Of a DNA stretch of 64,000 nt, positions 29,900-52,600 are shown piece after piece (positions within the stretch are counted from its first letter, which is position 1; every line of letters begins with the position of its first letter). Source of the DNA: Psammoneis japonica (Eukaryota); the NCBI GenBank assembly GCA_008632985.1, contig QPGO01000007.1, positions 744,001-808,000 on the forward strand, in the 5' to 3' direction. The translations under genes and the position numbers were made by a program. The notes under the pieces are model-generated. The model was not told the DNA's origin and ran no database searches. It worked only from the letters and a program-made list of their open reading frames with translations.

Positions 29900-31330
29900 C
29901 TGCATGACTGCACTGACAGGCTGGAGAGGAACCCCACTACAAACTGTCTTAACTACAAGATGGGTCCTGTGCCAACAGCAGCAGTGCTCCACACCCATCC
30001 GGTGGAAAATGGAGTTAGATCAATGGCAACTTGAGCAAGTCCTTTGTTGTTGTTTGGGCTGCAGGCATCAATGAACCAAATGCTGTCAATGGCCACGCTG
30101 GCCTGCATGGCCAGCATGGTTGGCATTTTGGCAAATGACAAATTGCTTGCCTGATCAATCCTCACAATGTGGTCTGCTGGCCATTTTCATGAATCACATG
30201 TGCATCCCCAGCTCCATGATCCAAGAAAGCTGCGGCAGTTCTAAGAACAAAGAACTCAACAAACTTGCCATTTTCATCACTGATGTCTCCCCCAGAGTTG
30301 GGAAAGATTTCCAAAATGATGACATTTTGGGAGGAGATCATCTGCTGATTGGAGAACTGCTTTGTGAGGTGGAAGGCAGCTCTGATGAAGAACAACAACT
30401 TGGTGAGGTGGAAGGTGCACTGCTCTGTGATGGAAAAGGCAGCACTGGCAGAGAAATGCTTGTTGAGGTGGAAGGGACAGTGCTTGGTGGTTTGGAAGGC
30501 TGCTCTGTCACAGTGCTGCTTAAAGAGGCAGAGTGCAGCTCTCATGGAAGACTGCTCTAAGAGGCAGAAGGTAGCTCCAGTCGACCGCTGCTTGGACAAG
30601 CAGAAAGAAGCTCTGATGGAGCACTGCTGGGAAAGGTGGAAGGCACTTTTGATGGACCAGTGCTTGGCAATGTGCTGGGATGATTCAGGGACAGAGAGGA
30701 CAAGGGCTGTTCTGACAAGACTTCATCATTGAGACTGCAGCTGAGGGCAGTTTGCACTCCAATGCCCAGTGCCCAGCAACTCTGGCACTGCAGATGACTC
30801 TTTTGAGCAGAAGAAGACATGCCGGTCAGCAAGCATGGAACTGGAAATGAAGGCCAGTGAAAGCAAGGCAGTTCCTCCAGCAATTTCTTGACTGGCATAG
30901 GTTGTCAGGTCCCACTCCACAAGCTGTTCATCTTCCATGGCCAAAATGGACACCACAGCCAAGGGAGTCATCCCATGTGCAGGCTTTGTCAACCAGGTCA
31001 TGAGCATGCTGATCTCATTCCACTCATCCTTCCACACAGCATCCAAGACCTCTTCTTTGAGGTCCACAGCAGCACCCAAGGAAACAATTGCATGTCAGAC
31101 TTTCAGCTCCACTCTTAAGAATCTTGACACCCAAAGTTGGTGGTTGTTTCTGAAGCTCCACCATGAGTGCAAGTGTCTGCTGCAGAGTGCAAGGTTGTTT
31201 GCCAGAGGAATGTCCACGAGAAGCTCAATCTTTGCTTGAAGCACCTTGTCTCAACATTTCTGAAAACTGATTTTGGTGAGCAGCCATTTCAAACATCCCA
31301 AATTGGCTGAAATCAACACAGCGACGCCTT
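29900..31330. mobile_element. Degenerate TpA/CpG-depleted repeat-derived block, unassigned
   Basis: Same compositional signature as the transposons; short repeated GEVEG-like units at 30350-30680. Confidence 0.4.
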
Positions 31331-31592
31331 CCAATTTGACGCTTCTTGTAATCTACGTGCAAAGATGATCTTGGTGAAGCTCCGCATCAGTGTTGAGAAC
31401 AACTAATTGCTGAAAGAGGTGGCAGCAGTGCATGTCTTACCTCTGCTGAAGAGCCTTTATAAAACCTAGAGTAAAATCATAATAACTTGAAAGTTTACTG
31501 ATACAAACCACTAATAGCTGGCTTAATGGATTGATACAGACACATCAACATGCATGAGTGATCTCCCGCAAGACCTTCATTCTACAAAAAGT

Positions 31593-33594
31593 TCAGTACA
31601 CTTCCACGTGCCATTGCTTGTTCTTCTTCAACCCCTTTAACCACTCATCGTAATCGATATTCTTCGATTTGGCGACACTTTGGAGCATGTCTTGGATACC
31701 AGGCATCATTCCCTTCAACCCGCAAAAGTAAATGTGGGCTCCATTCTCCAACTTTTCAAACACTTCATCAGCATACTCTTCGACCTTGTCTTGGATGTAC
31801 ATTTTGCCTCCTTTCTTGTTCTCTTGTTCACGCGAAAGAGCATAGTCAAGACGGAATTGATCAGGGTTGTTCTTCTTCACCTCTTGCCACTCGTCATCGT
31901 ACAAAAGAGCGTCGCTGTTGGCAACACCCAAGAACAACCATGCTTGTCCCTTGTAAGCATTCGCTGCAGGAGTGTCCTCTGTGAACAACCGACGCACAAA
32001 GCCACGGTAGGGAGCAATACCAGTTCCAGTAGCAACCATAATGTAATCCGTGTTGGGATCCTCCTCGGGCAAGAGCATGACCTTACCGGCGGGACCAGTC
32101 ATTTGCACTTGATCGCCTGGCTTGGTATCACAGAGGAAGTTGGAGCAGATACCCTTCTTGGCAGGGTCGTCGGCTTTCAACTCGGGGCACCAGTAAGTGG
32201 CACGACGGACGCAAAGACTTCCAGTTTTGCCAGACATATCATCACCGTAACGACTGGAAGCGATTGAGTAGAGACGGACCGAGTGAGGCTTTCCGTCCTT
32301 TTCACGGACACCTGGGGGGATGACACCCCATGACTGTCCTTCCCAGTAGGGAAACTTGCCCTTGTGGTCAATGACAATGTGACAGGTCTCTCCCGTTGCC
32401 TTGGGTCCAACAATTCGCTTGGTGGAGACAACCTTTCCGGTAAAGGGAGCCTTATTCTTGAAAACATTAACGGGAACGGTGGACTGGTCCCAGTAAGGGT
32501 CAGCTTCCAAGAAGTCCTGCTTTTTGGACCCTTTTACAAACTCACTACCGGTAATGAGAGCTAGGGCGGCGAGTGCGGCAAGCCCACCCTTTTTCCCCGC
32601 AAGGGTAATGGCAGACACAATCACACCGGCGGAAACGACACCGGTAAAAATAGAAGACAAGGCTACCGCTGTGGGCATACCCAAGAGAAAAGCACCCATT
32701 GCTCCCGTCCAAGCACCGGTTCCTGGAAGTGGAATACCGACAAAGGCAGCCAACGAAGCCCACTGTTTCTCTACTGAACCTACACCAAGACTTGCCGACT
32801 TTTCTTCTGCACGAGAAAGCATGGGAGCCATCAATTTTCTAATGGAACAGCATTATGGTGAGCAAGGTGCAAACAATATTTGCACACAAGGGTAAATAAA
32901 TAGCAAAAGCATCACTCCAAACGACTCACTTGAGCTTTTCATTGCGGAGCAGAAACATCAGGGGAACAATTGGCATCATGTTACCAATCACACAGGCTGG
33001 CAAGACTGTAGTGATGGGCAAGCCCATCCAAAAGCCTACAGGCACTGCACCACGAAGTTCGACTACGGGCAAGGCTGAAATAATTGCCAAAACTGCCACA
33101 TCGGGAAGGCCAAAGGACTGAAAGTACTGCGCAATCTTTTGTCCTACATGCAAATGTTCCGTCGAAGCACCGGCAGTCGCAGCTAGAGCGGGTCCAGTAC
33201 TGAGCAAAGTTAATGCACTAAACGCAAGAGCAGCCCGTGTAAAAATCTTCAATGTCGCCTTGCCAAACTTAAACTTCCTCGTTTTCGAAAAGGATGCTTC
33301 CGAAACATCTGAAGATTTCGTATAGAGCGGTCTAGTAACACTGACTCTATCGCTGATAGGAGAAAGAGCAGTCCGAGCAGCATTTACTCGATACACATTA
33401 CACGAATTGAACCTATTTAGGGGAAAAGCAACGACACAAGACGATTTTGGTGGTGAATGACACAAACAACATGACAGTCGCGCTAGCTAGCAACTACCCT
33501 ACGGATCAACATACCGCACAGAGGGACCTGAAGAAAAGGCATCTATCAAAGGCAGGCCCAGAGTCACAAAGGCGGCAAACGACAACAGCTTCAT
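31593..33594 (-). CDS. Plastid-targeted fusion of a 'small multi-drug export' type membrane domain and ferredoxin-NADP+ reductase; exons 33594-33515, 33412-32930, 32838-31593
   Basis: Presequence ...[40 protein letters not shown], then in the same exon [12 protein letters not shown]...WHVEVY, nearly identical to the FNR at 5501-6436. Confidence 0.85.
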
Positions 33595-33753: not shown

Positions 33754-34451
33754 NNNNNNNNNNNNNNNNNNNNNNNNNNNNNNNNNNNNNNNNNNNNNNN
33801 NNNNNNNNNNNNNNNNNNNNNNNNNNNNNNNNNNNNNNNNNNNNNNNNNNNNNNNNNNNNNNNNNNNNNNNNNNNNNNNNNNNNNNNNNNNNNNNNNNNN
33901 NNNNNNNNNNNNNNNNNNNNNNNNNNNNNNNNNNNNNNNNNNNNNNNNNNNNNNNNNNNNNNNNNNNNNNNNNNNNNNNNNNNNNNNNNNNNNNNNNNNN
34001 NNNNNNNNNNNNNNNNNNNNNNNNNNNNNNNNNNNNNNNNNNNNNNNNNNNNNNNNNNNNNNNNNNNNNNNNNNNNNNNNNNNNNNNNNNNNNNNNNNNN
34101 NNNNNNNNNNNNNNNNNNNNNNNNNNNNNNNNNNNNNNNNNNNNNNNNNNNNNNNNNNNNNNNNNNNNNNNNNNNNNNNNNNNNNNNNNNNNNNNNNNNN
34201 NNNNNNNNNNNNNNNNNNNNNNNNNNNNNNNNNNNNNNNNNNNNNNNNNNNNNNNNNNNNNNNNNNNNNNNNNNNNNNNNNNNNNNNNNNNNNNNNNNNN
34301 NNNNNNNNNNNNNNNNNNNNNNNNNNNNNNNNNNNNNNNNNNNNNNNNNNNNNNNNNNNNNNNNNNNNNNNNNNNNNNNNNNNNNNNNNNNNNNNNNNNN
34401 NNNNNNNNNNNNNNNNNNNNNNNNNNNNNNNNNNNNNNNNNNNNNNNNNNN
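33754..34451. other. Assembly gap (N run)
   Basis: Run of n. Confidence 1.
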
Positions 34452-35251
34452 TTGGGAGCAACCCCAATGCTTGCTGAGAATGTCAGCAGGGTTGTGGGAG
34501 CCTTCGATGAAGTGGAGCTCAAGGCAACCAGAGGCAATTGCCTCACGCACACGGTGGAACGACAGTGCGGTGTGTCGCTTGTGTAACTTGGAGTGCGGGA
34601 TGGTGGCACTGTCTACAACCGACTTGTTGTCACCGAACATGTAACTGACATTGCGGATCGGGATGCCAAGGCAGCGCAGGGTGATGCGCAGGTCGACAAT
34701 CTGTTTGACACAAGTCCTTGCTGCAACAAATTCAGACCCGCAGGTCGCAGTCTCCAGGGTGGCTTGCTTCTTGGAGAACCAATCAGCCGGGAATTTGTTG
34801 AGGAAGTGGAGCATTCCCATGACAGAGCATCCAGTGAGCATGCAATGGTGCAAGTTTGCATCGACGTAGTGGGTGGCAGTGACGAACTTGCCAAGGGGCG
34901 GTGGAGCGTCCTTCGGGATCATCTCTTCTGCTTCGCCGCACACGGAATGCATCCATTCATGGGCCGGAGCAGGGAGATCTGAATGGTCGGGCTCTTCCGT
35001 ACAAATGCGGAGAGCGCCGTGTCGCATCTTGGAGAGGTGCCCACAGACGCGTTTGGCACGATCCAAGTGGCCTTGACGGGGTGCAGCTCGGAAGCTAGAG
35101 AGTGACATGGCGGCCGTGGCAATGTCAATTCGACCAAGAGACACTGCCCATTGGAGTGAACCAACAAGGGACTGGAACTTGTGAATGCCATCGGGCTCCA
35201 GCAGTTCGGAAGTGTCCAGTTCGGGGTGGTCGCCCTTCTCCAGAGGTGACA
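34452..35251 (-). mobile_element. Inverted Copia RT-end/RNase H fragment, paralogous to 42240-43040
   Basis: LSPLEKGDHPELD...WFSKKQATLETATCGSEF...NPADILSKHW on the minus strand. Confidence 0.92.
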
Positions 35252-38200
35252 GATTAACAGTCTTGCTCATTGTCAACCCATTGAGCAACCGCCATCGTCG
35301 TCGTTGATTTGCCGACGACGCCACTTCAATTCTGCATGGACCTCCGTACATGTTCCACATGCATCGGCAAGTTTACGCGCATCCAACACCAGGGCATCGG
35401 CAGGAAGTTAACGTCACGGTCATGGCCTCCTCACCGCTGGACATCTGGATTGATTGTGCCACCTTTGATCGCTGAAGACATGCATTCAACGGTCATGTCC
35501 AAGTCCATCCTTGATCCTCATCCCTTGACATGCCCATTCATCGGTTAACGGTCAAGAACCCTGCATGTTCAAGGATCTCTGTCGCTGAAGACACATGTGT
35601 GCACATGTCTTCACGGCCAAGGACTTGAACCCACTCTTTGGACTGCGGCTTTGCCACCACTCTACAAGCACGCCGAGTCTGTTGCACCTGATCTACCCCG
35701 GACTGCTGGTGCTCTGCAGTTCCACTGGGTCCACGAGGACGACTGTGAGAGCAAGCAGCCGTGATTGCAGCCTACGTTGGGGCGAGGGTGTTTTCCCGCG
35801 TTTGTTCGTTCGTCCACAGTGCCTGGCGCCTGCGTCAACTGGCCAGCCTGATCGGAAAATCCAACCGACATAAAATGAGAACGGTTTGGGGGTCTTGTCC
35901 ACCTCCAGTCAGCTTGCCTGCGGGGGTTTGCAACCCGCTGCTCCGCTCGCAAGCAACCCAAAGCGCCACTGGCTGCGGGTTCGAACGTGCCGGCACAACT
36001 CTAAGGACCGGACAGGAAGTTTAGCACTTGACAACGAACGGGACAGCAAAGCCCAGCGACTTCTGATTTTGGGGCAGTTCAAGATTTCAAGTCAAGTCCA
36101 TTTCAAGTCAAGTCTGTTCTCACCCAAGCTTCAAGTCTGTCTTCGCTTCCCAACAAGAATTGATTGTCCTGACACCACTTTTGTCTACCATGGTTCTCAC
36201 TTGTCAGCAACAAACCGATGGTTTTGAGCACGTTGTTGGAACCGTGCTTGCCCAAGGTGCTGGGAGTCCTCTTCGTTTGGCTTTGGCCCAAGACGGCATG
36301 GACTCGCATCAAGAACTGTTCACGTTCATGCCGTCCCAAATCGACTCGCTTGAGTGCGACAACGGCACCAATGTGATCCCTTTGCCCCGCGGTTGTGAGA
36401 ACATGTTGGCAGCCCCAGTTGGTCTGTACATTGTCAAAGCACACAAAGGTCTTGACGTTGCCAATGACTCCTCGTTGTTCACGCATGACGAGTTCCTTGC
36501 CCACCGCCTCAGCCCCGACTGCATGTCTTCTGTGTCCATCGGCAGCTCACCCCTCGCACCTCCGCATGTCACCAACCCGACCAAGGCACGCGACCCGGTG
36601 CGAGACTTCAAGCGAGGCATCAAGCATGACCCCACCGCTTTCACGGCTCTCAAATCCGACAAGCAGTGGCACACTTGGCACACCTCACTTGTGGCACAAG
36701 CCCGTGCCCCCAAGACGTCGAGTGCATCCTAGACTCGTCGTACAAACCGACCAGCCCCAAAGACAAACTGCTCTTTGCTGAACAGCAAAAGTGCATGTTT
36801 GCCGTCTTCGAACGCATCCTTCTCACCGACAAGGGCAAGGCTCTCATTCGCGAAAATGTGGGGTCTTCTGACACCCAGACCGTCTGCCGCGCCTTGTCTG
36901 AGCATGCGCTCGCCTCCACCCGTGCATCTGTCGAGTCCCCCACCTTGCTGGCGTGCCTCACCACCGCACGTCTTGGTGATGGCACTTGGAAAGGTCCGAC
37001 CCACGGGTTCATCCTTCATTGGCAAGATCAGTTGCGCAAGTGCGAGGCACTCATCCCGGCCAGTGACCACTTCTCTGAAGGACAGAAGTGCATCATGCTC
37101 GAGAATGCCGCACACCCTGTCGAGGAACTCCGTGCTGTCAAGAACCAAGCTGATCAGCATCGCACGCAGAGTGGCAAGAGCCTCACATACGATCAACACT
37201 GTGGCTTGCTGATGTGTTTTCATCCCAGGTGAGAAACGCGCATGCGGAGGTGAGACATTTCGTCTGTCCCTTTTCCATTGCCATGCTTTTTGTGCGAGCA
37301 AATCTGACTGGACTTTCCCCCGATTTTTCATTTCTTCTTTCTGCAGACATGTTTATTTTGAAAAGCCAGCCGTCATTCTCATTGGTTGAAGGGTGCGCAC
37401 AAGAAAAGCGCTTTCTCGAAAGCGGCATTTTTTGGAGTGAAACTGACAGCTGTCTGCTCGTTGTTGTTATTCTGGTGCATTTGAGAGACTGTTCCACTGT
37501 TTCTTTCACCGAATCTGACCACTTTGAAAGAATGCACGCATTGTTCATTGTGTGAAGAGCTCACACCAAAAAAGAACGGCGTTCTAACTCTGTCATTTGC
37601 ACAAGAAAAATCGGGGGAACTGACTTCGCACGTGATTTTTTTGCGCGATCGGCCATTTCAAAGATCGACTGATTTGTCGACCTGTGTGGGACACTTGAGT
37701 GAACAAAACAATGGGATTGAAATGGCAGCGTCAAAGTTCAATGTGTGTCTAGTCATTGTGTGATTTGACATGCTCAAGCAGAGTTAAAGATGAAATGTTG
37801 ACAAAATTTCACCGCTCAAAATGACTGGTTCTATCTTAGAATAAAATAAAATGGCTGCAACACTGAGATGTCGCTAATGGCATTGTTCTACTTTACAACA
37901 ATGAAACTGTCACACTTGCATCTGAGATTCTTTATCCTCACACACCCTCAAAACCGAACACATGACGATTCTCTTGTCAGCAGCGAAATCTGATGTTGTC
38001 GCGCGACCCAAAAGCGTCGTCCACAACGACTCAAAGTGTGGACGATACATTGTGAGAATCACAGCAACGTGTCATAGAAACATTCTTCGTTGTCAGTGTC
38101 CGGTGTCAAGTAGATGGAGCAGCGCGTTGATGAGAATCCTACTTCGCAAGCTGAGGAAGAGAGAAAGAGGCATCAAAAATGTCATGAGTCAAAAGGCCAT

Positions 38201-41200
38201 CCACAAGGCACAACAAAAAACAAAGATCAAATTTTCAACCACATCATCGCACCGAGCGTTGTCTTGTTGACCTGTCTCGGCATTCTTACCTTCTCAGTCA
38301 CAACATCCGTTGGTGCAAGAATGGACGAGTTCATGGCGACGGCATGGTGCCATTTTCGGTTTGCGCGAATTGTGGTTTGTGGTTCGAGACATGGAAAAAC
38401 ACATTTTTGCTGTCATGGAGCTCGTTTTTTACTAAGATTTTTGGTGCTAAATGCACGTCTCATGTAGAAACACGTAGAAAACCTCGTGATGTGACCAAAA
38501 GTTTCTCACCCAGGATGAAAACACATCTGCTCCTCTCCGCGGCAGCTCAATGCGACAGTGCGTTTCAACCCAAGACGACACCTCGAGCTCCCCGACGCGC
38601 CATGTGCGCACACGACGTCTGCTCCGAGGAACCGTCCAATGATGTGTTCTGTGACATTGACAGTGACATTGACGTCCTTCAGGCCAATGCTGCCTGCACC
38701 CGTGGTCCCAGCCTCACCGGTGACCAATGGAAACGTCTCCCTCCCGACCACCAACGGATTTGGGATTCGTTGCCCCATTCCTCCAAGGCGATCATCCTTG
38801 AGCATTCTTGCCCGCCTCCCCGCAACCCGCAAGACAGCAACTGCCATGAGTCCATTGCGGCCAACCTTCACGACCACCGCCTTGGGAGTGACGGTGATGT
38901 CAACTTGTCCAACACGACTCCTGCTGACTCTGGTGACTCCACTCCAAATGTGGGTGCCACTTTGGACAATCCCATCCTGGCGCACCTCACCAAGCGCAAG
39001 CCACTGCCACCCGGTGATCTGCAACGTCTGTTGTCTCCTAACCAAGCCCCCAATGCTGGTCGACCGGGGCCATCCGCCGCTCCCTCTACCCCGCCAGCTT
39101 CTGCCGATGACACAGAACTTGGCGGCTGCACTTGCCATCGCGTTGATGACCACAATGTCATTTGCTCTGCCTCTGCTCATTGCTCCACACGCACTGGTGC
39201 TCTGGTCGATCGTGGGGCCAACGGCGGCATTGCTGGCGACGACGTTCGCATCATTGCACGCACCTCTCGCCAAGTCGACGTTCAGGGCATTGATGACCAT
39301 CAATTGGTGGACATCCCTGTTGTCACCGCTGGTGCCGTCATTGAGACCCAGTGTGGTCCCGTCATCGCCATCCTCCATCAGCACGCATGCACGGGCAAGG
39401 GCAAGACCATCCATTCCTGCGGCCAGCTTGAATGGTGCAAACAGGATGTCAACGATCGCTCTGTCAAGGTGCCCAACGGCTTGCAATGCATTGCCACTCC
39501 TGGTGGCTGTGTCATCCCCATTGACATCAAGGGCGGCCTGCCTTGTGTTGCCATGCGACCTTGCACTAATGCCGAGTGGGACACCCTGCCCCATGTCATC
39601 CTCACCGGTGATGACACATGGGATCCTTCCGTCCTCGATCACTCTGTCACTGACGATGACCAGTGGTGCGACGCGATCTCTGACCCACAGGACGGTCCCA
39701 CTGCCAACCTGTTTGACGGGTGCGGCAACTGCCGTCATCGTGTCATTGTCAACGAGACCATCATGTCCACTTCCTTGTCTGCCGATCACGCGTCCACCCT
39801 CGATGATCACCTCATTCTGAACAACGACGTGTTCTGCGAGTGTCATCTACATGCGATTGACCCCAAGGACGACGACGTTCCGCCCCTGGAGCGCACTGTG
39901 CAGCCCAAGGACCCCCCCTTCGAGTCTCTTCGGCCTTGCTTTGGCTTCCCACCTGCCGATGCGGTCCGTCGTACTTTTGACTGCACCACGCAGTGCGCCC
40001 GCATGCCAGCCGGCACACACCTTGGGAAGGCCTGCAAATCACCCAACCCCGCCCTTAACGCACACCGCCGCAACGAGCCTGTCGCCACTGACACCGTTTG
40101 TGCCGACACCCCGGCCGTCGACTCTGGTTGCACCAGCGCCCAACTGTTTGTTGGCACCGAGTCTGCCGTCACTGACGTCTGCGGCACCAAGACGGACAAA
40201 GAGTTTGTCAACACACTCGAGGATCAGATCCGTGAGCGTGGTGCCCCATCCAAACTCATTGGCGACCGTGCTCAAGTTGAGATCAGCAACAAAGTGCTCG
40301 GGATCCTACGAGCCCTCTTCATCTCCAGCTGGCAAAGTGAGCCTCACCAGCAACACCAAAACTTTGCCGAGCGTCGACACCAGACCGTGAAGCGCATGGC
40401 GAACACTGTCATGGATCGTTTTGGTTCGCCCACCCACACATGGCTGCTGGCGCTCATGTGCGTGTGCTTCACACTCAACCATGCAGCATCCCCACGTCTC
40501 CACTGGCACACGCCCCTCGAGACTCTCACTGGCTCCACCCCGGACATCAGCCCATTGCTTCGCTTTCACTGGTGGGAACCCGTGTGCTTCCACCTTGATG
40601 ACTCCGATTGGCCGTCCGAATCCCGTGAGTTGCGTGGATGCTTTGTTGGCATTGCTGAGCACGTCGGCCACCAGATGACCTTCAAGATTCTCTCTGACGA
40701 GACTCAGAAGATCCTCCACTGGTCCAACGTACGCTCCGCCACCACCGATCCTGCCGTTCGAAACCTGCGTCTTGATCCTCCTGATGGGGAGCCACCTGAA
40801 CCCATCATCAAATCTCGCCATGATGACAACCCCGTCGATTCTCCTGATGGGGAGATCAGGACACCCAAGATGCCAGTTTTCGATCCGCAAGACATCATCA
40901 GACGCACCTTCTTCATGCAGCCACAAGAGGACGGACAATGCCACAGAGCTTGCATCGTCAAGGCCGTCGAAGACCACGAATGGAAAGTGAACGGCAATCC
41001 CGAGCTTGCTAAGTTCATCTGCTCTGTCAACAATGACGAACACGAGGAAGTCCTTGCCTGCAACGACATCATGAATCACATTGAGCAAGAAGACGAAGAC
41101 ACTGCTGTTTGGAAATTCCGACGCATCGTGTCACACGAAGGACCTCTGAAGCCTCATGACCCAACCTGGAAAGGCTCAAGCTACAACATCATGCTTGAAT

Positions 41201-43375
41201 GGGAAAGTGGGGAGATCACGTCCGAGCCTCTTGCCATCATCGCCAAGGACAACCCCATCACCTGCACCATCCATGCACGAGAGAACGGACTTCTCGACAC
41301 GGATGGCTGGAAGCGGTTCCGCACCATTGCGAGGCGCCAAAAGAAGCTATTTCGCATGGCCAACCAAGCCAAGCTTCGCTCCTTCCGCACTGCACCTCGC
41401 TGCAAGTGCGGACACGAAGTTCCCCGGAACTGCAAACATGCCATGTCACTAGACGAACGCAATGGCAACCGCAAATGGGGAGACGCAACTAATCTCGAGA
41501 TGGACCAACTCGAGGAATACGAAGTCTTCCATGACTGCGGGCCCTTCGAGTCTTCCACTCCTCCTGCGGGACACAAGAAGATCCGAGTGCACCTGGTGCA
41601 CGACGTGAAACATGACGGTCGCCACAAGGCACGACTCGTAGCCGATGGGCACCTCACGGACATGCCTGTTGACAGTGTCTGCTCCGGAGCAGTCTCCCTC
41701 CGTGGCCTTCGGCTGATGATTTTCCTGGCCGAACTCAACGAGTTGGAGACATGGGCCACCGACATTGGCAATGCCTGCCTTGAAGCCACCACCAAGGAGA
41801 AGCTCTACATTGCAGCCGGACCCGAATTTGGCAAACTCGAAGGACACATCCTTGTCATCCACAAGGCCCTGCATGGACTGCACAGCTCCAGCCTCCGCTG
41901 GCACGAGCGCTTCGCCGACTGCCTGCGAGCTGAAGGCTTCTTCCCCTGCCGCGCCGAACCCGACATTTGGATGCGCAGGAACGGCGACCACCATGAATGC
42001 ATTGCCGTTTATGTGGATGACCTCGCCATTGCTGTGAAGGACCCTCAATCTTTCGTTGACACTCTCACGGAAAAGTGCAAGTTCAAGCTCAAGGGTGCGG
42101 GACCCATTGAGTTCCATCTGGGTTGCGACTTTTCCCGGGATCCCGACGGCACCTTGTGCCTGTCTCCGCGCAAGTACATCGAGCGCATGGTCGACAGCTG
42201 CACCCGACTGTTTGGGGAGAAACCTGCCACCAACGCCCTGTCACCTCTGGAGAAGGGCGACCACCCCGAACTGGACACTTCCGAACTGCTGGAGCCCAAT
42301 GGCATTCACAAGTTCCAGTCCCTTGTTGGTTCACTCCAATGGGCAGTGTCTCTTGGTCGAATTGACATCACCACGGCCGTCATGTCACTCTCTAGCTTCC
42401 GAGCTGCGCCCCGTCAAGGCCACACTTGGATCGTGCCAAATGCGTCTGTGGGTGCCTCTCCAAGATGCGACACGGCGCTCTCCGCATTCGCATGGAAGAG
42501 CCCGACTGTTCGGATCTCCCTGCTCCGGCCTGTGAATGGATGCATTCCGTGCACGGCGAAGCAGAAGAGATGATCCCAAAGGACGCTCCACCGCCCCTTG
42601 GCAAGTTCGTCACTGCCACCCACTACGTCGATGCAAACTTGTGCCATTGCATGCTCACCGGACGCTCTGTCATGGGAATGCTCCACTTCCTCAACAAATT
42701 CCCGGCTGATTGGTTCTCTAAGAAGCAAGCCACCATGGAGACTGCGACCTGCGGGTCTGAATTTGTTGCCGCAAGGACTTGTGTCGAGCAGATTGTCGAC
42801 CTGTGCATCACCCTGCGCCACCTTGGCATCCCGATCCGCAATGTCAGTTACATGTTCGGTGACAACAAGTCGGTTGTAGACAGTGCCACCATCCCGCACT
42901 CCAAGTTACACAAGCGACACACCACACTATCGTTCCACCGTGTGCGTGAGGCAATTGCCTCTGGTTGCCTTGAGTTCCACTTCATCGAAGGCTCCCGCAA
43001 CCCTGCTGACATTCTCAGCAAGCATTGGGGTTGCTCCCAAATCTGGGACCTTCTCCGCCCCCTCATGTTCTGGAACTTCATTCCATCCGAAGTCGAATCT
43101 GTTTCTGTGGCTCCTCAAGCAAACTGGGGAGTGACAGGATTTGAACAGGATTTGGGTGCGCGCGAAATGTCGCGCGCTGTTTAGTTTGCCGCGCACAGTT
43201 TTGTGTGCTTTAGTTCCGCGCGTTCGCGCACGATGTAGTTTGCTTTCGAGCCACGAGGCTCACAAGAATAACAACAGCAGCCCGATCACACTGACTTGCA
43301 CGTCTTTCGGCTCCTGCAATGGTCTCTGAGCGGAGACTCATCTGCCATTTAGACAGCAGCAAGGAGTCATTGTTT
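35252..43375 (+). mobile_element. Younger Ty1/Copia element: PBS about 35252, gag from about 36190, pol to about 43130, PPT about 43125-43131, truncated 3' LTR 43132-43375; no 5' LTR
   Basis: Protease LVDRGANGG; integrase VATDTV, SEPHQQHQNFAERR; RT HLVHDVKHDGRHKARLVADG, YVDD; RNase H; frameshifts at about 36705 and 42421. Confidence 0.95.
37211..38527. mobile_element. Non-autonomous TIR DNA transposon (1317 bp) inserted in Copia gag, 4-bp TSD TGCT
   Basis: 27-bp TIRs gatgtgttttcatcc(ca/tg)ggtgagaaac; tgct at 37207-37210 and 38528-38531. Removal restores GLLLS, as in the old copy at about 22750. Confidence 0.9.
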
Positions 43376-46300
43376 GAACTCTTGCCATTTGCCTTCAATT
43401 TCTGTCATCCTTTGTGTGGAAGTTGATTGGATTCGGGTTAGAGATCCATGCGGTCTCGAGGTTGGCCTTTGGTGTGGCAAAGGTGATGCTGCAGCTGTCC
43501 AAAGACAACACTCTTTGATGCATCATGGCCGCACACACACCCCAGCCGTGACTTCAAAAAGCAAGTTGCACTCACAAAAGCAAGCTGCACTCTCTCGTCT
43601 CAGCTTCGTTTGCCCCCTGCCAGACCTCTCTCACCCCCACAAAGTCACCTTGATTCAAAAATGTGTTGGTTCATTCCCAATGATGGCAGCATCAGTGAGC
43701 AAAGCAGCTCTTGCCAGAGACTCCAAGTTGTCTGCTGGTGCTGGCTGCGCCTCTCCTCTCTTGCCTCTTGGCGATCCCAAGGCTGCCGCTCTCTGCTCAC
43801 TCTGGCTGGCGCCACATCACCAGCATGCTGAAAAGCCCCCATCAACCCTTGTGTTGATGCCATGCCAGTGTTTGTCATGTGTGCAGCTCCCCAGTTGGTT
43901 GGTGGAGTCAAGCCAGAGCGCCACCCTTTTCTGCTGCATTGTCAGGGCAAAAGTGCCACAGTGCACATCTCCAGAGCTCCCAATGAGCTCCCTCCAAAAC
44001 TTTGCTTGGAAGCAAAAGCTGGGCTCCACATGCCTTTTTGCACCATGTTCTCCATTTTAGCCAACAACCAGATTTTGACCAAAGCACTCACTGGCAAAGC
44101 ACAGCTCCAGACTTGGCAGCAGCTGCAACCAAAGCTTTGCACAAGCTTCTCCAGCTCTGACATGAAGCACAGATGACAAAACAGGTTTTCATCAGATGAC
44201 ACTCTTTGATGCATCACAGCCACATGCACATCCCAGCTGTGACATCAAAAAGTGCACCACAAAAGTCATTCTCAGCTTTGTTGGCCCTGACGAAAGAACT
44301 CTCTTGCCCCCACAAAGTCACCTTGATCCAGCTGTGTGAGTTCATTCCCAATTGTGACCACATCAATGGCCAAAGCAGCTCTTTTGTGCCAGAGTCTCCA
44401 AGTCATCTGCTGGTGCCAGCTCTCTCTTGCCAACCCTTGGGCTGCTGCTCTGCTTGCTCTGGCACCACATTGCCAGTGTGCCCCATCAACCCTTGTGTTG
44501 ATGCCAGGCACCAGTGTTTGTCATGTGTGCACCAGCTCCCCAGTTGATTGGTGGAGAGTCACACAAGAGCCATCCACTTCTGCTGCATTGCCAGGATGAA
44601 AATGCCACAGTCACATCTCCAGAGCTCCCAATGAGCTCTCTCCAAAAATTACTTGGAAGCAAAGCAGCTGGGCTCCATGCCCCTTTCGCACCGTGTCCTC
44701 CATTTTACCAGCAACCAGATTTTGACCAAAGCACTCACTGGCAAAGCACAGCTCCAGACTTGGCAGCAGCTGCAAAGCTTTGCACAAACTTCTCCGCTCT
44801 GTCATGAAGTGCAAATGATGAAACAGGTTTTCATCAGCTTTTTCTGACTCTTCAGGAGTCTGAAATGCTTCAGTGTGAAGCTTCTGTGGAAAGCAAACAC
44901 AAGACCAATGAAGAGAGGCTGAATGAACAGTGCCCCCCACACACAATCATCATGCTTGTCATTGTGGCACTGTTGGGCACCACCTGCTGGAAGCAAGCTG
45001 TTGCTGGACAGCAACGTTTGGTCATTTGGCAGCAAAAAGGCAAAATTGGCCATCTGTTGCTCTGTGCTGGCACAGTGCACCAAGTGCCCAGCACCAATGT
45101 GCTGGACAGATGTGCAATCTTCAAAACAACAGCAAAGAGTTGCCAGCATTTTGAGTGCCTGATGGCTGATTTTTTTTGCCTCATGCCTCATGGCCAGTGT
45201 GGGCCACCACCCCCTTTGATCCCCCAGCAGGAGGAAGCATTGAATGTGTGCCAAGGTGCCATGCCAAAACAGATCATTCAGATGCATGCTGCTTGGACAT
45301 TGACTTTGTTGCAACCACGGCACCCTTGCATGGTCATTGGCAAGCACCGCAACATGCCCTTCTGACATTTCATCTGCCAAAGCAAGTCCTGGATTGCTTG
45401 CCACAATGACTGGACTGCCACTGTCATCCAGGAAAATGGTGTGTCCATGCCGACCATGACAGTCATGTCCTTTTGTGCATTCTCCCATTAAAAAGTCCAC
45501 AAGGATGGTGTGCAGCTGCACTGGCGAGCCAACACTTGACCAGCACTGATGTCATGAGTGCCAGCCCTTTTGGCTTCCCAGCAGCAACAGCTGTCCCCCT
45601 GAGTGACACTCTCAAAAAGATGCTGCACACCCAAAAATGGGTGAAGTGTCTGTCTGAGTTGTTGACATGATGAAGTGCTGTGACTGCACACTGATGCCAT
45701 CAAACAGATCTGCAACCAGTGGCATTGTCCCCACATTGCCCTGCAGCAAGAACATTGCCTGTGCCCAGCAGGGGCAGATCAAAGCCAAGCCCACCATCCT
45801 GCTGAACTCATTGATCAATGTCACCACCAAGCTGCCCCCCAACAAAGTCTGTGCACAACATGCCAAAACACTTGAATGCACCCATGCCAAGTCCACCTCC
45901 ATCATTCAAACAGGCTCCAACAGCCAGTGCAGTGATGCTGTCATTCAGAAACATGGCACAACCAAAGAAATCATTCATGTCTCTTCTGCCAGTGGCTGGC
46001 AGGACTTTGCTGGCAGGACCAACCAAACCAAAGTGCCGCCATGCAGCCAAAAATGTCAGTGTCTTGTTCTGCCCCTGCATTGTGTGACAATGAGATGGAA
46101 CCTCTCTGAAGCAGTCATCCTCAGTGAAGCCATTTGTCAGATCATGCAACACATGCACAGTGAGCATGACACACCAATGAGAGTGTGGTGCACTGGCAAA
46201 CCTTTGTCACAGACTCATGTCTTGCTGTTTTTCTCAGCTCTTCTTGCATGGGCAGCATGCAAATCAAATCAAACCCGCATTTTGTCTGAAACCAAATCCG

Positions 46301-49300
46301 GAGTTGTTTTGTGTTCCTTGGTGCAGCCAACAGTCAAACAAGGGCAAGGAAATGGATTGGATTCAGGCCAAAGATCTGTGCTGTCTTGAGGCCAGCTTTG
46401 GGTGTGGCAAAGGTGATGCTGCAGCTGTCCAAAGACAAGACTCTTCAATGCGCCACAACCACATCCCTCCCAGCCACATCAAAATGTGCACCACAGAAGT
46501 TGCCTCAATTCACTTGTGTTGCCAGAACTCTCTCACCCCCACAAAGTCACCTTGATCAAGTTGTGTGAGTTTGTTCCCAATCATGACAGCCCCAATGGCC
46601 AAAACAGCCCTTGCCAGAGATTCCAACTTGTCTGTCAGTGCTGGTTCTTGTCAATCCTTGGATCACTGCTTTCCAGCAAAGCATTGCTGGTGGCTAAAAA
46701 GTGTGTGTCAATCCTGGCATCAATGCCATGCCACCATTTGTCATGTGTGCTGCTCCCCAGTTGATTGGTTGATCCAAACCAATCAGCTGATGAGCAGCAG
46801 GGGGGGGGGGGGGGGGCAACCAGCCACCAGCCAAAAAGCCAAAAAGCTTTTTGCCCACTCCTCCTGGCTGCAATGACAGATCATCATCTTCAGATGGCAT
46901 GTGGCGGTGTTGCCTCAGGACAAAAATGTGCCATTGTTAAAAAAGCAGGCAGCAGTCCTTTCCATTGTCATGTCAAAAATTTTGAAGTTGTTTTTGTGTG
47001 TGCCACTCATTTCTCAGCAGAAGTCTCAACCAGCCATGATTTCTTCTTTTCATGACATGGTGCTCCCAGCATGTCATGTGCCCCTGTGACATTTGTTCAC
47101 ATGTGTGGTGCTCAACATGCAGATCTTTTTATGCTGGCTGCTTTATCCCACAACCCTCAAAGGTTTCTGGCCAGACAAGCCCAAGTCAGTCTTGGCCATG
47201 GCTCACTTGCCACTGTACAAAAAAACTCTGGAATTACAAAATTGCATGGAAGCAGCACCAGGACCCCAGCAGAAATGCCAAAAAAGTCTGGAACATGCAG
47301 AAACTGTGTGGAATCCAGCATAGAATCAGTGCCAGGAATGTCAAAAAATCATGACATTCAAGACTTTTTTGGCATTTCTGCAGAGACCCTGGTGCTGCTT
47401 CCATGCAAATTCAATGTTCCTGAGTTCTTTTGCGGGGCAGCTTGTGGCAGCTGAAAAAGTCAGGTTCTACACCTGCTGTGCCATTGTCCATTTTCAGCCA
47501 ATGACCAGATTTGTGCCAAAGCACTTGCTGGCAAAGGACAGCTCCACAGACTTGTTCTTGGTGGCAGCAGCAAAGTTTTCTTCTGGCTTCTCCATCTCCG
47601 CCAAGAAACTCAGATGATGAGCCATGTTTTGCTCATCTCTCCAGGAGTCCACTGAAACACTCAAGTGTGGGGAAATTCCTGTGGATGAGTTAAACGAAAA
47701 ATGGCTGATTTTGTTGAAAGGGACCCTTTTTGCAATTGTTGTGCTGTTCAGTGCCTCACTTTTTGAAACATGTGGTGGTGTGCAAGTTGATCTTTTGGCC
47801 CTGTGCACTTGTTGCTTTGCAGCAACTCAATTGTCATGTGTTTCTTCAGGTCATCATTGTCTGGGCTGCTGCTGCTGCTGCTTTGTTTGTGACAGAGTGT
47901 CTTCTTAAGACCCTGTTCAAACACCATCAAACATTGTCACACCTGAAAAATGCAAAAAGACAGTGCAGGCACAATGTGAGAGCCACAGTCTCCTGCAGGC
48001 CCATCTTAAAATGCAGCAGTTTGTGCAGCATGCCCCAAGGCAGCATCAATGACTTTCCAAAGGACTGGTGGTCATTGTGCAAGAAACACACAAGTGACAA
48101 AGTTGCAAGCATCTCAGGCAATGCAGTTCTCCCCCCTTGGCTGCTGCATCTTGGCAAACTGTGCAGCCGTGCAATCTTTGTGTGTGTGTGTGTGTGTGTG
48201 TGTGCTGTGTGTGTGCACATTGCTGCCAAACAAGTGCAAGCCATGATGAGCAAACAAGCCAAGAGGAGTTTCCAACTTTTTGCAGGAGAGCATGCAAAGG
48301 CAAGGTGGTGGTCTGAGCAAGAAGCCAGAAACTCATTCAACACACCCAAGAACTTGCAGTCAACATCACATGCAGTTTGTGCACTGAGTCCAACCTTGTG
48401 CTGGCAACCACAAAAGGATTTCTCAGCCAGGCCCAGCCCAGGCACAAAGGCATTCAGCAAGTGTTGGTTTGGTTTTGTCACAATCAGCTGTGCTGTGCAA
48501 CAGTGCAACAGCTGTTGTGGAAAATGAGATCTGTTGAAGTGCTTGAATTTAGAAAAGAGGCTGACGCAAGACCATTTGCAAGACATTGTTGGTTTGAAAA
48601 TCAAGGATGTTCTTGTTGAAAAAAGCAACTTCATTGCAGATGGTTGGAGCAAAGGAGGCACACTGCAGTGCTGTGTGTCACTTGGAAAAGCCAAAGTGTG
48701 GTGGGACATTGGCCTGGTTTGGGAGATGGTTGTGGGTCTTTGTTTGGGCATCCGCAGCCACTTGGATGCAGACAAGAGCATGAGAAAACAATGAGCCACT
48801 GGGCAAAAACACTGTGGAAAAAATGTGTGGCGTTGTTTGTGTCACTTTGAAGTTGTCTGCACATGGGCACAAGGAGCAGATGCAAAATGTCCCCCAATGG
48901 GAGGTGAAGCCTCCACAGCATGTTTGCTGCTTTGTTCTGCTCTTGCCCCACTTTTGCTTGCCACCACACAACCATTGCTTGTCCTGGACATCCCTGCTGC
49001 AGGCAACCTCTCTGATGGAGCCACTGCTGCTGCTCCTGCTGCTGTGGGAGCCAAAGCAGATGACTCATTGAAATTGGCACAGGCAGCTGCCACCATTGTC
49101 TGATGTTTCTGGCGGGAATCCAGGGACACTGCAAATGATGAAAAGATTGTAGATTCTGTTAAAATTTTTGACCAGCCTTTGCAGCAGTTTGCCAACAAGA
49201 GCTGCCACTGGTGGATTTGTTTGCCCAAACCTTTTTTGCACAACTCATTTGCAAACAAGTGTTTGTGGAATGTCAAGGGCCCCAATTGGCTGCAAACTTG

Positions 49301-52300
49301 TTTACAAACCAAAGAGCTTGAACAGCTCACAATGCAGTCATCACATGCAAATCACATGCACCCAAATCACATCTTGCCACTTGCTTGCTTGGTGCAACTC
49401 CACATCCAGTTGGATGTGACTGGGTTCATCTGCCACATCACACTCAAGTGCAACAGCTTGATTGGCAACAGCAAACAAACAGCCAATTGTTGTTGTGCCA
49501 CTGTGCCATTGCCAGGAGGCCACATCCCATTGGAAATGAGCATCACTGATGAAGACAGCACACATTGGACAGAGAAACAATCCTCAAAATGACAGAAGAG
49601 TCCTGCCATTTTGATTGCCTGGTTGAGTTTTTCTCTTGTCACACTGGATGGCTGGTGCAGGCCACCACTCCCTCTGATCTGCATGACAGGGAGCAGCTGC
49701 GGGGATGGGTTGCTTTGCAGCCAACAAACTGCACTCTTTGCAACAAGGTGGCATGCTGGAAAAATGTTTGCACATGACAAAGGCTGGACTCACTCCTGTG
49801 ATGAGCAAGCAGAAAAAAATGATGCATGGCATGATCACCTTTCACCTTCTTGATTGAAAATGCACCAATGCAATGTGTGGAGTTGGGTGTCTGGGCAAAG
49901 AGAGCAATGGAGAACATGTGCTGCAAGATTGTTTGGTGACAGCAACTCTTGTGGTGCTTCTTCTCTAGCTTGTGGCTGGACCCAGCTGGCCACAAGCAGT
50001 TTTTCTTGACAAATGTTTTGCCTTGCTGTTTGATGCCTTGACATTTTTTCCAAAAAGTCACAGCTGCACTCATGTTTGTGCCAAGTCATGGTGCAAGAAG
50101 CAAGGCTTTGTCAGAGCCATGCCCATTGGAATCCTCAACTCCTCTGCAACCACTTCTTTGCAGAGCCAGCCAGAGAGGAGTGTCTGGCAAACTGCCACTG
50201 CAGACTCAGCACAAATTTTTGGTGGAGTGAATGCAATGGACACCTCCAAAGCCAATTGGAACTTTGGCTTCCCCATTTTGCAATGAGTCACAGACATTGA
50301 CAAGTCTCTGTCACTCCACATGATGATGCTGCAACCTGCACTGCACCCAGTGGCAGCATTGTTTGTCAAAGCAAAGAAGTGTGCTTCCTGTCAAAAAGTG
50401 ACTTCTAGTTTCGTGCAAGCATGTGCATCATGTCAGGGGTTTGGTTCTTCCTGAGAAGCTCAGGTTTGCATCCAAATCTGACAATGCAGCTGCAATCCAT
50501 TGCTGCTGGATGGTCGACCTTCACTCAGCTGATCTTCAAGTTTGAACACCATCACAGGTGCCAAACTGGCATTTGAATGAGGGGCACGACCCAGTCCAAC
50601 CATGGATCCATCAGCTGACAAGGACACCCACAGTCTAAATGAAATGCTCTCAGTTGCACCATTTGGATGTTGCCCTGCTTTGTGACTCACTTTCCTGTGC
50701 TTGGACAATGTTGAAAGATTCCAACTCCTCCAACTTCACTCATGTTTGTTGATTTGTGCCAGGTGCTTCCCACAGCCACCACATGACCATTTTGCTTCCA
50801 CTCAAAGACAATGAAGAACCAATTGGATCATTTTGCTGCTGGGGGCATGGAGTTTGACCTTGTTGCAACCATGCCAACTTTGCGTGATCACAGGCAAACA
50901 ACACCAAAACACATCATCCTGACATTTCATCTGCCCAAAGTCCTGGTTCACCCATCACAATGACCAAACTGCTGTCATCCAGGGAAACAGTGTGTGTTCA
51001 TGCTGACCAAAGTGGTTTCCCTCTTTGTGTGGTTCCCCATTGAACCCATGAGAACAATGTGTGATTGCACTCACAAATTGACACACTTGACCAGCACTGA
51101 CTTCACAAGTGTCATTTCTCAACTCCCCAATGCCAACAACTGTCCCCAAGCAATTCAAAAACACTGAACACCAAAAACTGGGTTTGCTGAAAAGAGTCTG
51201 TCTGAGTTGTTGCCATCAAGCATGGAGATTGCACTGGCACAATCAAACCACCCATCCAGAATCAACAAAATTAAATCTGCATTGTCATGTGGCAAGAATG
51301 TCTCCTGTTGTGTCTTCTGCCAACATGGGCTTGGGTCAAAACAAGAGAGTGTGGCCAAGTGCTGGAGAAAATGCAAGCCACTTCAAGCTGGGCCTCAAGC
51401 CCAGATGAGCTCTCAAGTGTGCATTCACAACACATGCACAAAAGCACAGCTGTTTGAGACAGCTGACATTTTTTTGTTTTTGTCCTGGAGTTGCTGCAAC
51501 ATTTGAGCAAGGCTGTTTGTGAGTTTTTGCTTGTGAGCACAGTTGACAACTGCCCTGGCTTGCACCCATCATCAGCTGATGAGTGCAAAGTCAACAACAC
51601 AAAATCTTCATGATGACTGCAGCTGTTGCCTTTGCTCAAAAATGCAGTTTTCCATCATGGGGCGATGTCAAACCACACTGATCATTTGGCACATGGAGAC
51701 CATGGCTCCACAAAACCAGTCTCATGGCAGCAACTCCCAACCTCCACCTGCAAACTTGTGGCTCATGGTTTTACCTGCTCCTGAGCAAGGCATGGTGCAC
51801 ATGGAAATTTCTCCCCGATTTTAAAAACCTGCAAAGCACCTGGAAATGAGTGATTTGCATTTGACATTTGCCATCAAATGAAGATCATGCAGCACTCACA
51901 TGACACAAGACAAGCATGGCACTGGGGACAGAGAAGGCCCCACACTGATTTGAGGTGTTGCCATCATCTTGGCACACTGATGGACAAAGAAGAATGTGGC
52001 AGTTTGGCCACAATTTTCCGGTGCAAAATGCAGTGCAGGTTGCACCACAACACCGCTCTCAGTTCTTCTGAGACACATTCTTGGCTGCAAGGAAGAGAAC
52101 AACAGTGAAAACAATGGCACAAGTGCAAAAAAGATAAAGATGACAGCAGTGTGATGAGACAAGGTGCACAACAATCAGCAGAAGCTTTGCTGCTGAGCAC
52201 TTCATTTGCACATCTGTTGGCACTCCAACAGCTGAAAAAGCAAGCACTTTTTGTCACTTCAAGTGAGTGCATGTTTTCAGCTGTGCCTGCTGGAAAAGAA

Positions 52301-52600
52301 GAGATGATCTTTGACAATGAATTTGTGAAAGAACACATCACAAAATCACATGAAAATTTTCCAATCAACAATCAGGTGTTGTGTTGGGGGTGCACTTTCA
52401 ACAATGAATGTGCAAACAAATTCAACAATGAAATGTGCAAACAAATAGACAACCCAGTGCTCCAACAACACACATGGGGGTTTTATTTGTGTGGCACGCC
52501 GCACAAATTTGAGCAAATCTCGTGGCTCCACTGATGCGTTGGACTGTCCACGTTGCGGCAGCACTTGAAGTTGTGAGCCACGAGATTGAGCCACAGCAAG
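43376..52600. mobile_element. Degenerate repeat block of unassigned family with internal dispersed duplications
   Basis: Related units at about 43420-44190, 44195-44830 and 46350-46770, and at about 45360-45680 and 50915-51220; near absence of TpA and CpG. Confidence 0.6.
47220..47432. repeat. About 70-bp inverted repeat / foldback (MITE-like)
   Basis: ttgcatggaagcagcaccagg...gcagaaatgccaaaaaagtct at 47242-47289 pairs with agacttttttggcatttctgc...cctggtgctgcttccatgcaa at 47361-47408. Confidence 0.8.

Follow-up and report, generated by a model that had tools for sequence, protein, structure and literature searches.

The 64,000-nucleotide window analysed here, from the diatom Psammoneis japonica (contig QPGO01000007.1, positions 744,001 to 808,000, numbered below from its first letter), contains a Ty1/Copia long terminal repeat (LTR) retrotransposon at 35253-43407 (+). 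The polyprotein of this element, which we named copy B, has cysteine or histidine at most of the positions where its homologues have tyrosine. The question raised by this locus is whether a process that converts TpA to TpG or CpA is directed at transposon DNA, as had been proposed in an earlier reading made from the letters alone (hereafter, the sequence-only reading). The analysis makes it highly probable that a targeted process acts in place at the TpA steps of transposon DNA, and we consider, with good confidence, that this is the best explanation of the data as a whole.

All the peptides quoted in the sequence-only reading were located in two open frames of copy B. The first, at 38188-42573 (+), encodes 1461 amino acids, including the integrase and the reverse transcriptase; the second, at 42396-43184 (+), covers RNase H, a part of pol that lies one frame further on, and reads TCGSEF where the family has TYGSEF. 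The consensus of the public homologues has tyrosine at the quoted sites (QYA, TTQYA, VYA, DVY, YKYG, GYKKIRVHFVYDVK, SVYSG, DIGNAYL, KALYGL, YEYIAVYVDD and TYGSEF); at the sites visible in these comparisons, the intact consensus does not itself carry Cys or His. The codon counts of the long frame agree with this picture. Among its 1462 codons there are 6 TAY, 61 TGY and 72 CAY (Y represents C or T), versus 99, 53 and 43, respectively, among the 2741 codons of seven pooled host open reading frames (ORFs) of the window. Tyrosine makes up 0.4% of the copy B frame; the median among the best 150 of 31,313 HMMER hits is 3.8%, and only four of these 150 fall below 1.5%.

The 16 conserved Tyr columns of an alignment with 22 long homologues read Y in three cases, C in six, H in four, F in two and A in one, so that 10 of the 16 are Cys or His, as the sequence-only reading had claimed for the Tyr sites in general. 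Whereas only 3 of these 16 columns are kept, 221 of the 243 other conserved columns are (Fisher p = 2.3e-10). A derivation of the Cys and His residues from arginine codons (CGY) was ruled out, because none of the 22 conserved Arg columns reads C or H. The same loss is seen in copy C, an older full-length related Copia at 18881-27510 (+). Of 13 conserved Tyr codons, copy C retains none (7 read TGY and 6 read CAY) and copy B keeps three; the Y of the YVDD motif is His in copy C.

The loss of tyrosine is part of a general loss of TpA. Strand-symmetrised observed/expected ratios were calculated for host-like DNA (29,653 bp), for copy B together with an adjoining fragment A of the same family (34452-43407, 8,956 bp), and for blocks of older repeat relics (24,593 bp). 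The TpA ratio is 0.638 in host-like DNA (1331/2086), 0.163 in the two Copia copies (75/461) and 0.045 in the relics (71/1585). In the same order, TpG and CpA amount to 1.16, 1.45 and 1.88, ApT to 0.91, 0.94 and 0.91, and CpG to 0.978, 0.822 (549/668) and 0.142 (211/1490). Taken singly, copy B has about 0.16 of the expected TpA and about 0.82 of the expected CpG, and copy C about 0.02 and about 0.1. TpA loss thus deepens with age, from 0.16 in the young Copia to 0.02-0.05 in old copies, and it runs ahead of CpG loss, since the young Copia retains most of its CpG. ApA is not depleted (0.99-1.27 in relic bins), and the G+C content of the relics is raised only slightly. The signature is not limited to 35252-43375, the interval to which the sequence-only reading had assigned it; it is stronger at 17.6-27.75, 30.0-31.3, 43.4-52.6 and 60.0-64.0 kb, where CpG has been erased too. 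Copy B has 442 CpG steps; at the corresponding places copy C shows TG or CA in 311 cases and still has CpG in 23. The changed steps comprise 177 TG and 134 CA (binomial p = 0.017), a mild strand bias that the TpA outcomes do not have.

This spectrum has a particular consequence for reading frames. Per kilobase, the relics contain 1.6 TAA and 0.7 TAG, versus 8.9 and 10.6 in host DNA (together 2.3 versus 19.4), and 26 TGA versus 19. The change of TA to TG or CA makes no stop codons and removes TAA and TAG, and for this reason the long frame of copy B and the ORFs of the relics look intact. The Tyr, ATA and TTA codons, in turn, nearly vanish from the affected copies. The dead repeats at 17600-27750, 43400-52600 and 60000-64000 contain many ORFs of 180-300 amino acids in all six frames.

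Pairwise comparisons show that the changes arose after insertion, on DNA, and independently in each copy. The two LTRs of an element are identical at insertion. Those of copy C (18881-19125 and 27259-27510) differ at 48 of 245 positions, which comprise 14 discordant steps with CA in one LTR and TG in the other (28 positions), 5 single differences at YpR steps (R represents A or G) and 15 other differences. Fragment A, which lies at 34452-35252 (-), is part of another copy of this family in inverted orientation; it covers the reverse transcriptase/RNase H part and corresponds to 42238-43040 of copy B (inverted repeats of 95-97%). The two differ at 35 of 801 aligned positions (4.4%), 30 of which lie at YpR steps; we counted 7 discordant steps, 13 single differences of the CpG type, 3 of the TpA type and 5 others, and 5 TA steps are shared. 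A duplicated host gene in the window served as a control. The NAD_binding_1 oxidoreductase gene at 5498-6437 (+) has an inverted duplicate with 95% identity 25 kb away, at 31592-32530 (-), which is not hypermutated: 47 of 939 positions differ (5.0%), mostly at third codon positions, with no discordant TG/CA steps and 23 shared TA steps. The difference between the A/B pair (7 discordant, 5 shared TA) and the host duplicate (0 and 23) is significant (p = 1.2e-4).

The outcomes at Tyr codons point in the same direction. On the coding strand they are balanced (13 TGY versus 10 CAY). Ten Tyr codons have changed in B as well as in C; the outcome is the same at 5 of them, and at the other 5 one copy reads TGY where its counterpart reads CAY, which is the expectation for two independent even-odds hits on TAY. 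These results bear on the possibility of editing before integration. The APOBEC and ADAR enzymes work on cDNA or RNA that has yet to be integrated, and leave their traces on a single strand. The present case resembles such editing in being a deaminase-type transition hypermutation that disables retroelements, but differs from it in affecting both strands equally and after integration. ADAR-like A-to-I editing of transposon RNA, or deamination of cDNA, fixed by retrotransposition, would have in its favour that ADARs prefer a 5' U (as stated in the Discussion of bioRxiv 10.64898/2026.01.13.699255, a source consulted in part), which matches the TpA step. However, editing of RNA or minus-strand cDNA predicts a single outcome on the coding strand, and it is excluded for RNA or one-strand cDNA because TGY and CAY are balanced and the LTRs of copy C, instead of being identical, are discordant. 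Moreover, TpA loss deepens with age, and a non-coding relic present at single-copy depth is affected as well. We therefore assign only a very slight probability to an origin before integration.

The A/B pair also gives an approximate idea of the rates. At least 17 of 30 TA copy-sites are estimated to have changed, versus 5 non-YpR mismatches in 801 positions; about 0.3% of the ordinary positions changed per copy, and about 13 of 104 CpG copy-sites were lost. On these small counts, the rate at TpA is roughly 100-fold or more above background, and the TpA process about 6-9 times faster than CpG decay. Changes of TA to TG or CA far exceed the other changes.

The borders of the affected blocks are sharp. 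The number of TA steps per 250-bp bin drops from 6-27 on the host side to 0-4 inside, and the TpA process ends within about 250-300 bp of the repeat edge. Together with the discordant copies and LTRs and the spared host duplicate, these borders bear out the proposal that TpA is converted to TpG and CpA on both strands and that the process is aimed at transposon DNA. None of the three outcomes that the sequence-only reading had named as refuting it (a Cys/His consensus at the sites compared, no excess of TA to TG or CA, bases contradicted by sequencing data) was observed.

The TA steps that survive in the relics have a distinctive context. TTAA accounts for 22 of the 71 survivors, versus 48 of 1331 TA steps in host DNA, and CTAA/TTAG for 19, versus 95, whereas ATAT and ATAC/GTAT have no survivors in the relics, versus 117 and 164 occurrences in host DNA. 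The flank composition of the relics differs strongly from that of host DNA (chi-square p = 1.6e-20). The data were described by a half-site model in which each base pair of the TpA step is mutated independently, at a rate set by its outer neighbour, with host DNA or 55 normal metagenome Copia loci as baselines. The additive model fits all ten tetranucleotides, with likelihood-ratio chi2 values (3 df) of 98-111 for the relics and 30-33 for the young Copia. When the outer neighbour, 3' of the changed A, is T, the estimated cumulative dose is 2.7 in the relics and 1.8-1.9 in the young Copia; the corresponding values are 2.3 and 0.9 for C, 1.25 and 0.5 for G, and 0.3-0.5 and 0.4-0.65 for A. The preference is TAT ≥ TAC > TAG >> TAA, on the strand where the changed base is A. 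This half-site order and the comparison with CpG decay are constraints that can be tested.

The borders and the context also allow us to weigh an explanation without any dedicated system, namely an error spectrum of replication or repair in heterochromatin that becomes visible where selection is absent, with Pol eta-like WA>WG synthesis (W represents A or T), GC-biased gene conversion and ultraviolet TA photoproducts as variants. The relics are indeed unconstrained DNA, and in host-like DNA, too, TpA is low (0.64) and TpG and CpA are high (1.16). Nevertheless, relaxed selection alone is insufficient, because the intergenic host DNA adjoining the blocks keeps its 6-27 TA per 250 bp. A rate excess of about 100-fold is found between copies that are only 4.4% apart. 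The Pol eta-like spectrum, which the sequence-only reading had offered as an option, is not supported, given the undepleted ApA and TAA/TTA as the most refractory context. Gene conversion does not fit either, as ApT is unchanged and G+C rises little. On balance, an explanation without a dedicated system is improbable.

The bases themselves were compared, over 35253-54452 at 80% likeness, with contigs from four sequencing runs of one sample, which perhaps represent the assembly's own data. In one of these runs, X1, the word depth is about 65-97 in 29 of 30 bins over the relic and a host gene, and pieces of 315-873 nt match the relic with 0-7 differences each; the TA- and CG-free relic sequence is supported by a second assembler. 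The Copia element is covered by 14,130 contigs with a summed word depth of 1e4-2e5, versus about 70 for single-copy DNA, and the family is therefore very abundant. Between X1 and the window there are 573 transition sites and 85 transversion sites. Among the 40 best-supported of 671 differences, the window reads TG or CA where other copies have TA in 15 cases and where they have CG in another 15; it reads CG where others have TG or CA in 3 cases and TA where others have TG in 2, and 5 are of other kinds. At position 40061, for example, the whole X1 depth reads TAC and the window reads CAC.

These comparisons, along with relatives found outside the window, speak to the possibility that the composition is intrinsic to the family (a Cys/His consensus with few TA steps) or results from miscalls in sequencing or assembly. 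Metagenomes were scanned with intact peptide patterns derived from a 6-sequence alignment; of 602 matches, 420 were confirmed and the best 80 were kept. Since the patterns are intact peptides and only the best 80 of 420 loci were kept, the scan under-samples hypermutated copies. Among these best 80 loci, the TpA ratio ranges from 0.22 to 1.00, with 55 loci at or above 0.6 and 3 at or below 0.33. TpA depletion is thus not a trait of the family. Three loci (L019, L025 and L031) have a CpG ratio of 0.10-0.23 with TpA at 0.43-0.57 and 3.9-4.7% Tyr in the reverse transcriptase; some hosts have CpG decay but not the TpA process. Three others (L077, L030 and L079) have only 1.0-1.5% Tyr, with Cys and His raised. 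Additionally, in three public proteins only about 50-55% identical to copy B, 12 of 12 (P0171), 6 of 8 (P0256) and 7 of 10 (P0208) conserved Tyr columns are replaced. These six relatives, at about 50-62% identity overall, show the same Tyr replacement or low Tyr, and the signature therefore occurs in other records and in other Copia lineages.

It is true that a few public homologues are also without Tyr, and that the sequencing runs may be the assembly's own data, as an intrinsic or artefactual origin would have it. However, other copies carry TA at 15 sites among the 40 best-supported differences, the Tyr content of the homologues and the TpA ratios of the 80 best loci are those given above, independent contigs of a sequencing run support the bases of the relic, and the blocks coincide with LTR structure and end at host genes. 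An intrinsic or artefactual origin retains next to no probability.

The data show the spectrum, its symmetry between the strands, an action that follows insertion, the confinement to repeats, the order of contexts and the lead over CpG loss. From these, an underlying mechanism can be proposed. A transition process at the DNA level would act on the inserted transposon where it sits, converting TpA to TpG or CpA, a change of A:T to G:C that may fall on either of the two base pairs, with the neighbour of the mutated pair setting the rate of each half-site. A second, slower process converts CpG to TpG or CpA, as in the ordinary decay expected of CpG-methylated transposons, and the two together drive old copies to near-zero TA and CG. 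The TpA process makes no stop codons and strips Tyr, ATA, TTA, TAA, TAG and other TA-containing signals. The enzyme may be guided by the silent-chromatin state of the transposons, and the process may serve as a genome defence. Its most likely agent would be a DNA adenine deaminase of the TadA/ADAT2 kind, by analogy with the proposal made for Bigelowiella natans. In tRNA, the target of TadA and ADAT is A34, which is preceded by the invariant U33; such a preference would suit the TpA rule. Granted a targeted process, adenine deamination is a tentative choice that falls somewhat short of an even chance, modification of thymine is a doubtful one, and the rest falls to something unspecified.

The sequence-only reading had placed the mutation on the adenines of TpA. 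The TpA step was borne out, but the choice of adenine was not, because TpA is its own reverse complement and the sequence has no power to tell an attack on adenine from an attack on thymine. The counts from the pairwise comparisons, the dinucleotide ratios and the context model are equally compatible with T>C and with A>G. A dioxygenase of the TET/JBP type could oxidise T at TpA in silent transposons to 5-hydroxymethyluracil or 5-formyluracil. Thymines oxidised in this way mispair with G, and mispairing or faulty repair would cause T>C changes; the losses of CpG and of TpA would then both arise by transition of a modified pyrimidine, each within a self-complementary YpR step. The depletion of CpG and TpA in the same blocks is in line with this, as is the finding that, in dinoflagellates, which also belong to the stramenopile-alveolate-rhizarian (SAR) group, a TET/JBP homologue makes 5-hydroxymethyluracil, which is enriched in transposons and silences them (PMC11572971, consulted in part). 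On the other side, the consulted part of that paper gives neither a TpA preference nor a mutational consequence, and TpA loss is much faster than CpG loss and separable from it in the metagenome relatives that keep TpA and Tyr. All in all, an attack on thymine seems unlikely as the source of the signature.

With respect to known systems, the closest likeness is to B. natans, a chlorarachniophyte (Rhizaria), in which Mettrop et al. (bioRxiv 10.64898/2026.01.13.699255, April 2026, consulted in part) described TpA hypermutation of integrated DNA of nucleocytoplasmic large DNA viruses and virophages. Of the 231 new mutations that they recorded in two stretches of integrated viral DNA, 230 were A>G or T>C, and every one of these lay at TpA. 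The rate was about 1000 times background, with events in only some mutation-accumulation lines; TpA-poor coding sequences were enriched in reverse transcriptase and DDE domains, and DNA adenine deamination was proposed. As in that case, the A:T>G:C changes of the diatom window are confined to TpA with both TpG and CpA outcomes, are confined to foreign or mobile DNA with host genes spared, and leave TpA-poor, CpA/TpG-rich blocks with coding sequences for reverse transcriptase as their long-term trace.

There are also differences. The host is a diatom, a stramenopile, and we observe fixed differences only, whereas the process was seen directly in mutation-accumulation lines of B. natans. The targets there are two single-copy viral inserts that still have 3.3% and 9.2% TpA, whereas here they are LTR retrotransposons with TpA ratios of 0.02-0.05. 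Moreover, the diatom case includes CpG erasure and a flanking-base preference, while the terms CpG, context and diatom are absent from the preprint text, as far as available. In its spectrum and its kind of target, the signature is that of the TpA hypermutation seen in B. natans, and the diatom case belongs with this very recently described kind. The sequence-only reading, made before any literature search, knew of no such system in diatoms. With B. natans the kind is no longer undescribed, but no report of TpA hypermutation in diatoms or other stramenopiles was found in the literature, where the B. natans preprint was the sole case found, subscription journals lying outside the search.

A second comparison concerns repeat-induced point mutation (RIP) of ascomycete fungi. 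RIP changes C to T, mostly at CpA (or CpG), makes TpA and stop codons, and lowers G+C; it is premeiotic, affects any duplication that exceeds a few hundred bp in length and about 80% in identity, and depends on the DNMT-like RID. In both cases, genomic repeats undergo transition hypermutation on both strands in a dinucleotide context, and host genes are spared. However, as the sequence-only reading had noted, the direction is the opposite: in the relics TpA falls to 0.045 and CpA and TpG rise to 1.88, and no stop codons are made. In addition, unlike under RIP, a host duplicate of 939 bp at 95% identity is spared, with its 23 shared TA steps. Because of this spared duplicate, homology alone is unlikely to be the targeting cue. 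A RIP-like way of finding targets, like the role as a defence system, is something that we infer.

Some diatoms encode DNMT4 enzymes related to RID, to which no function has been assigned (PMC9998398, consulted in part), and diatom transposons are CpG-methylated (PMC2806351 and PMC9998398, likewise in part). Deamination of 5-methylcytosine accounts for the half of the signature in which CpG becomes TpG or CpA, and is powerless at TpA. As LTR Copia elements with an RVT_2 domain, the targets resemble the CoDi-type Ty1/Copia of diatoms (Maumus et al. 2009, PMC2806351); in the consulted part of that paper, no mention of TpA, deamination or degenerate copies was found. The proteins closest to copy B come from marine metagenomes and algal assemblies.

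Several points weigh against a targeted process as set out here. Everything is drawn from fixed differences within a single 64-kb window. The sequencing runs are contigs rather than raw reads, all derive from a single sample and are perhaps the data of the assembly itself, and the polarity counts between X1 and the window cover the best-supported 40 of 671 differences. The rate ratios assume that A and B began identical with intact TA steps, and rest on 5 shared, 3 single and 7 discordant TA steps. The five TA steps shared by A and B and the surviving TTAA and CTAA reveal differences in susceptibility. New TA steps formed by ordinary G>A or C>T changes could account for part of the context pattern, although these would likewise persist only in slow contexts. 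Over about 290 bp past the 3' LTR of copy C (27513-27799) there is no TA, versus about 13 expected at host density, and CpG resumes at 27676; this TA-free stretch represents either a slight spread of the process or an unrecognised fragment. Targeting through chromatin, rather than through homology or small RNA, is a guess, and the abundance of the family weighs against a defence role.

It is important to mention that the TpA process is known from one preprint of 2026 and one rhizarian alga, and that its trace is far stronger in the diatom, which points to a broad, possibly ancient system rather than a curiosity. A wider view can be put forward, which we regard as doubtful. TpA erasure might be an old, chromatin-guided DNA base-editing defence across SAR, at least in diatoms and chlorarachniophytes, with the half-site order given above. 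Acting alongside CpG methylation, it would deprive any silenced invader of both self-complementary YpR steps, perhaps by means of one deaminase family with A and C activity. It would then be a widespread counterpart of RIP with the opposite chemistry, one that keeps frames open and has been overlooked in algal genomes. As genetic tools exist for some diatoms, the enzyme, a would-be natural context-specific A:T>G:C DNA editor, could be found by knock-out. There are practical implications, too. The long open frames of the relics can mislead gene prediction, the dating of insertions by LTR divergence is badly inflated unless YpR steps are masked, and protein-similarity searches under-detect transposons whose Tyr, Ile and Arg codons have been rewritten.

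The target elements are Ty1/Copia LTR retrotransposons by their RVT_2 and integrase domains as well as by their LTRs and target-site duplication. In copy B, the reverse transcriptase was recognised as RVT_2 (Pfam, E = 5e-25), and the integrase upstream of it by homologues with 813 of 861 residues aligned across the upstream region and the reverse transcriptase itself. Copy C has a weak RVT_2 match in 25738-26424, is 69.5% identical to copy B over 7383 aligned positions, and has LTR termini TG...CA with the flanks ACTCT and TCTCT, which match at 4 of 5 positions as a target-site duplication. The alignment between the two copies covers 35618-43409 of the window.

Copy B is less well preserved than the sequence-only reading had described it. 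It comprises the internal region and the 3' LTR, and ends in ...TGTCA at 43407; its 3' end, 43044-43407 (+), belongs to repeat family D1 and, over its last ~250 bp, matches the copy C LTRs. Local alignment within the window found no 5' LTR. In contigs from each of the four runs, 43407 is followed, after a single G, by 35253; this joint is the LTR end followed by the internal start of complete copies, so copy B has lost its 5' LTR. Near 42421 it carries two extra bases relative to most copies, and hence a frameshift, with the RNase H part in the shifted frame; these two bases are omitted in 49262 of 59169 depth units of run X1. A segment of 1321 bp (37207-38527, +) is lacking in the majority of the family copies represented in the read contigs: all four runs include contigs with the joint 37206>38528, and the depth drops over 37173-38452. 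It seems that either the family occurs most often as a shorter derivative or copy B holds an insertion. Fragment A adjoins the start of copy B and runs, on its other side, into a gap of N at 33754-34451. Its junction lies exactly where the 5' LTR of copy B should end, which suggests a rearrangement between two elements, not a simple truncation.

The older relics form four blocks. The first (17601-27750), delimited in 250-bp bins, consists of copy C and flanking fragments, with TpA and CpG nearly erased. The second (29960-31340) is a TpA- and CpG-poor island of 1.4 kb between two host genes, seen both in the bins and in the TA and CG positions. The third (43408-52600) is repeat-derived, with TpA at 0.03-0.07 and CpG at 0.05-0.08, and its depth in run X1 is that of single-copy DNA; repeats with 67-78% identity occur within it, e.g. 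43508-44195 versus 44199-44837, and none of the four ORFs tried there had a Pfam match. The fourth (60001-64000) extends beyond the window and includes a degraded Copia reverse transcriptase at 61175-62053 (-), whose RVT_2 match (E = 2.9e-7) falls just under the cut-off. Of 13 ORFs from the relic blocks searched against Pfam, 11 had no match and 2 had a weak RVT_2 match.

As regards the host genes, both copies of the duplicated oxidoreductase (NAD_binding_1/FAD_binding_6) look functional, judging from the position of most of their differences at third codon positions. The second copy has an extra Sm_multidrug_ex domain within the same ORF. Other host genes of normal composition in the window encode a cyclin, the gamma subunit of the chloroplast ATP synthase and an HD-domain protein. 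The ATP synthase gamma subunit identifies the host as a diatom, in agreement with the assumption of the sequence-only reading: its best named relatives are those of diatoms (Nitzschia inconspicua, Bacillariaceae and Cyclophora), with 85-91% identity.

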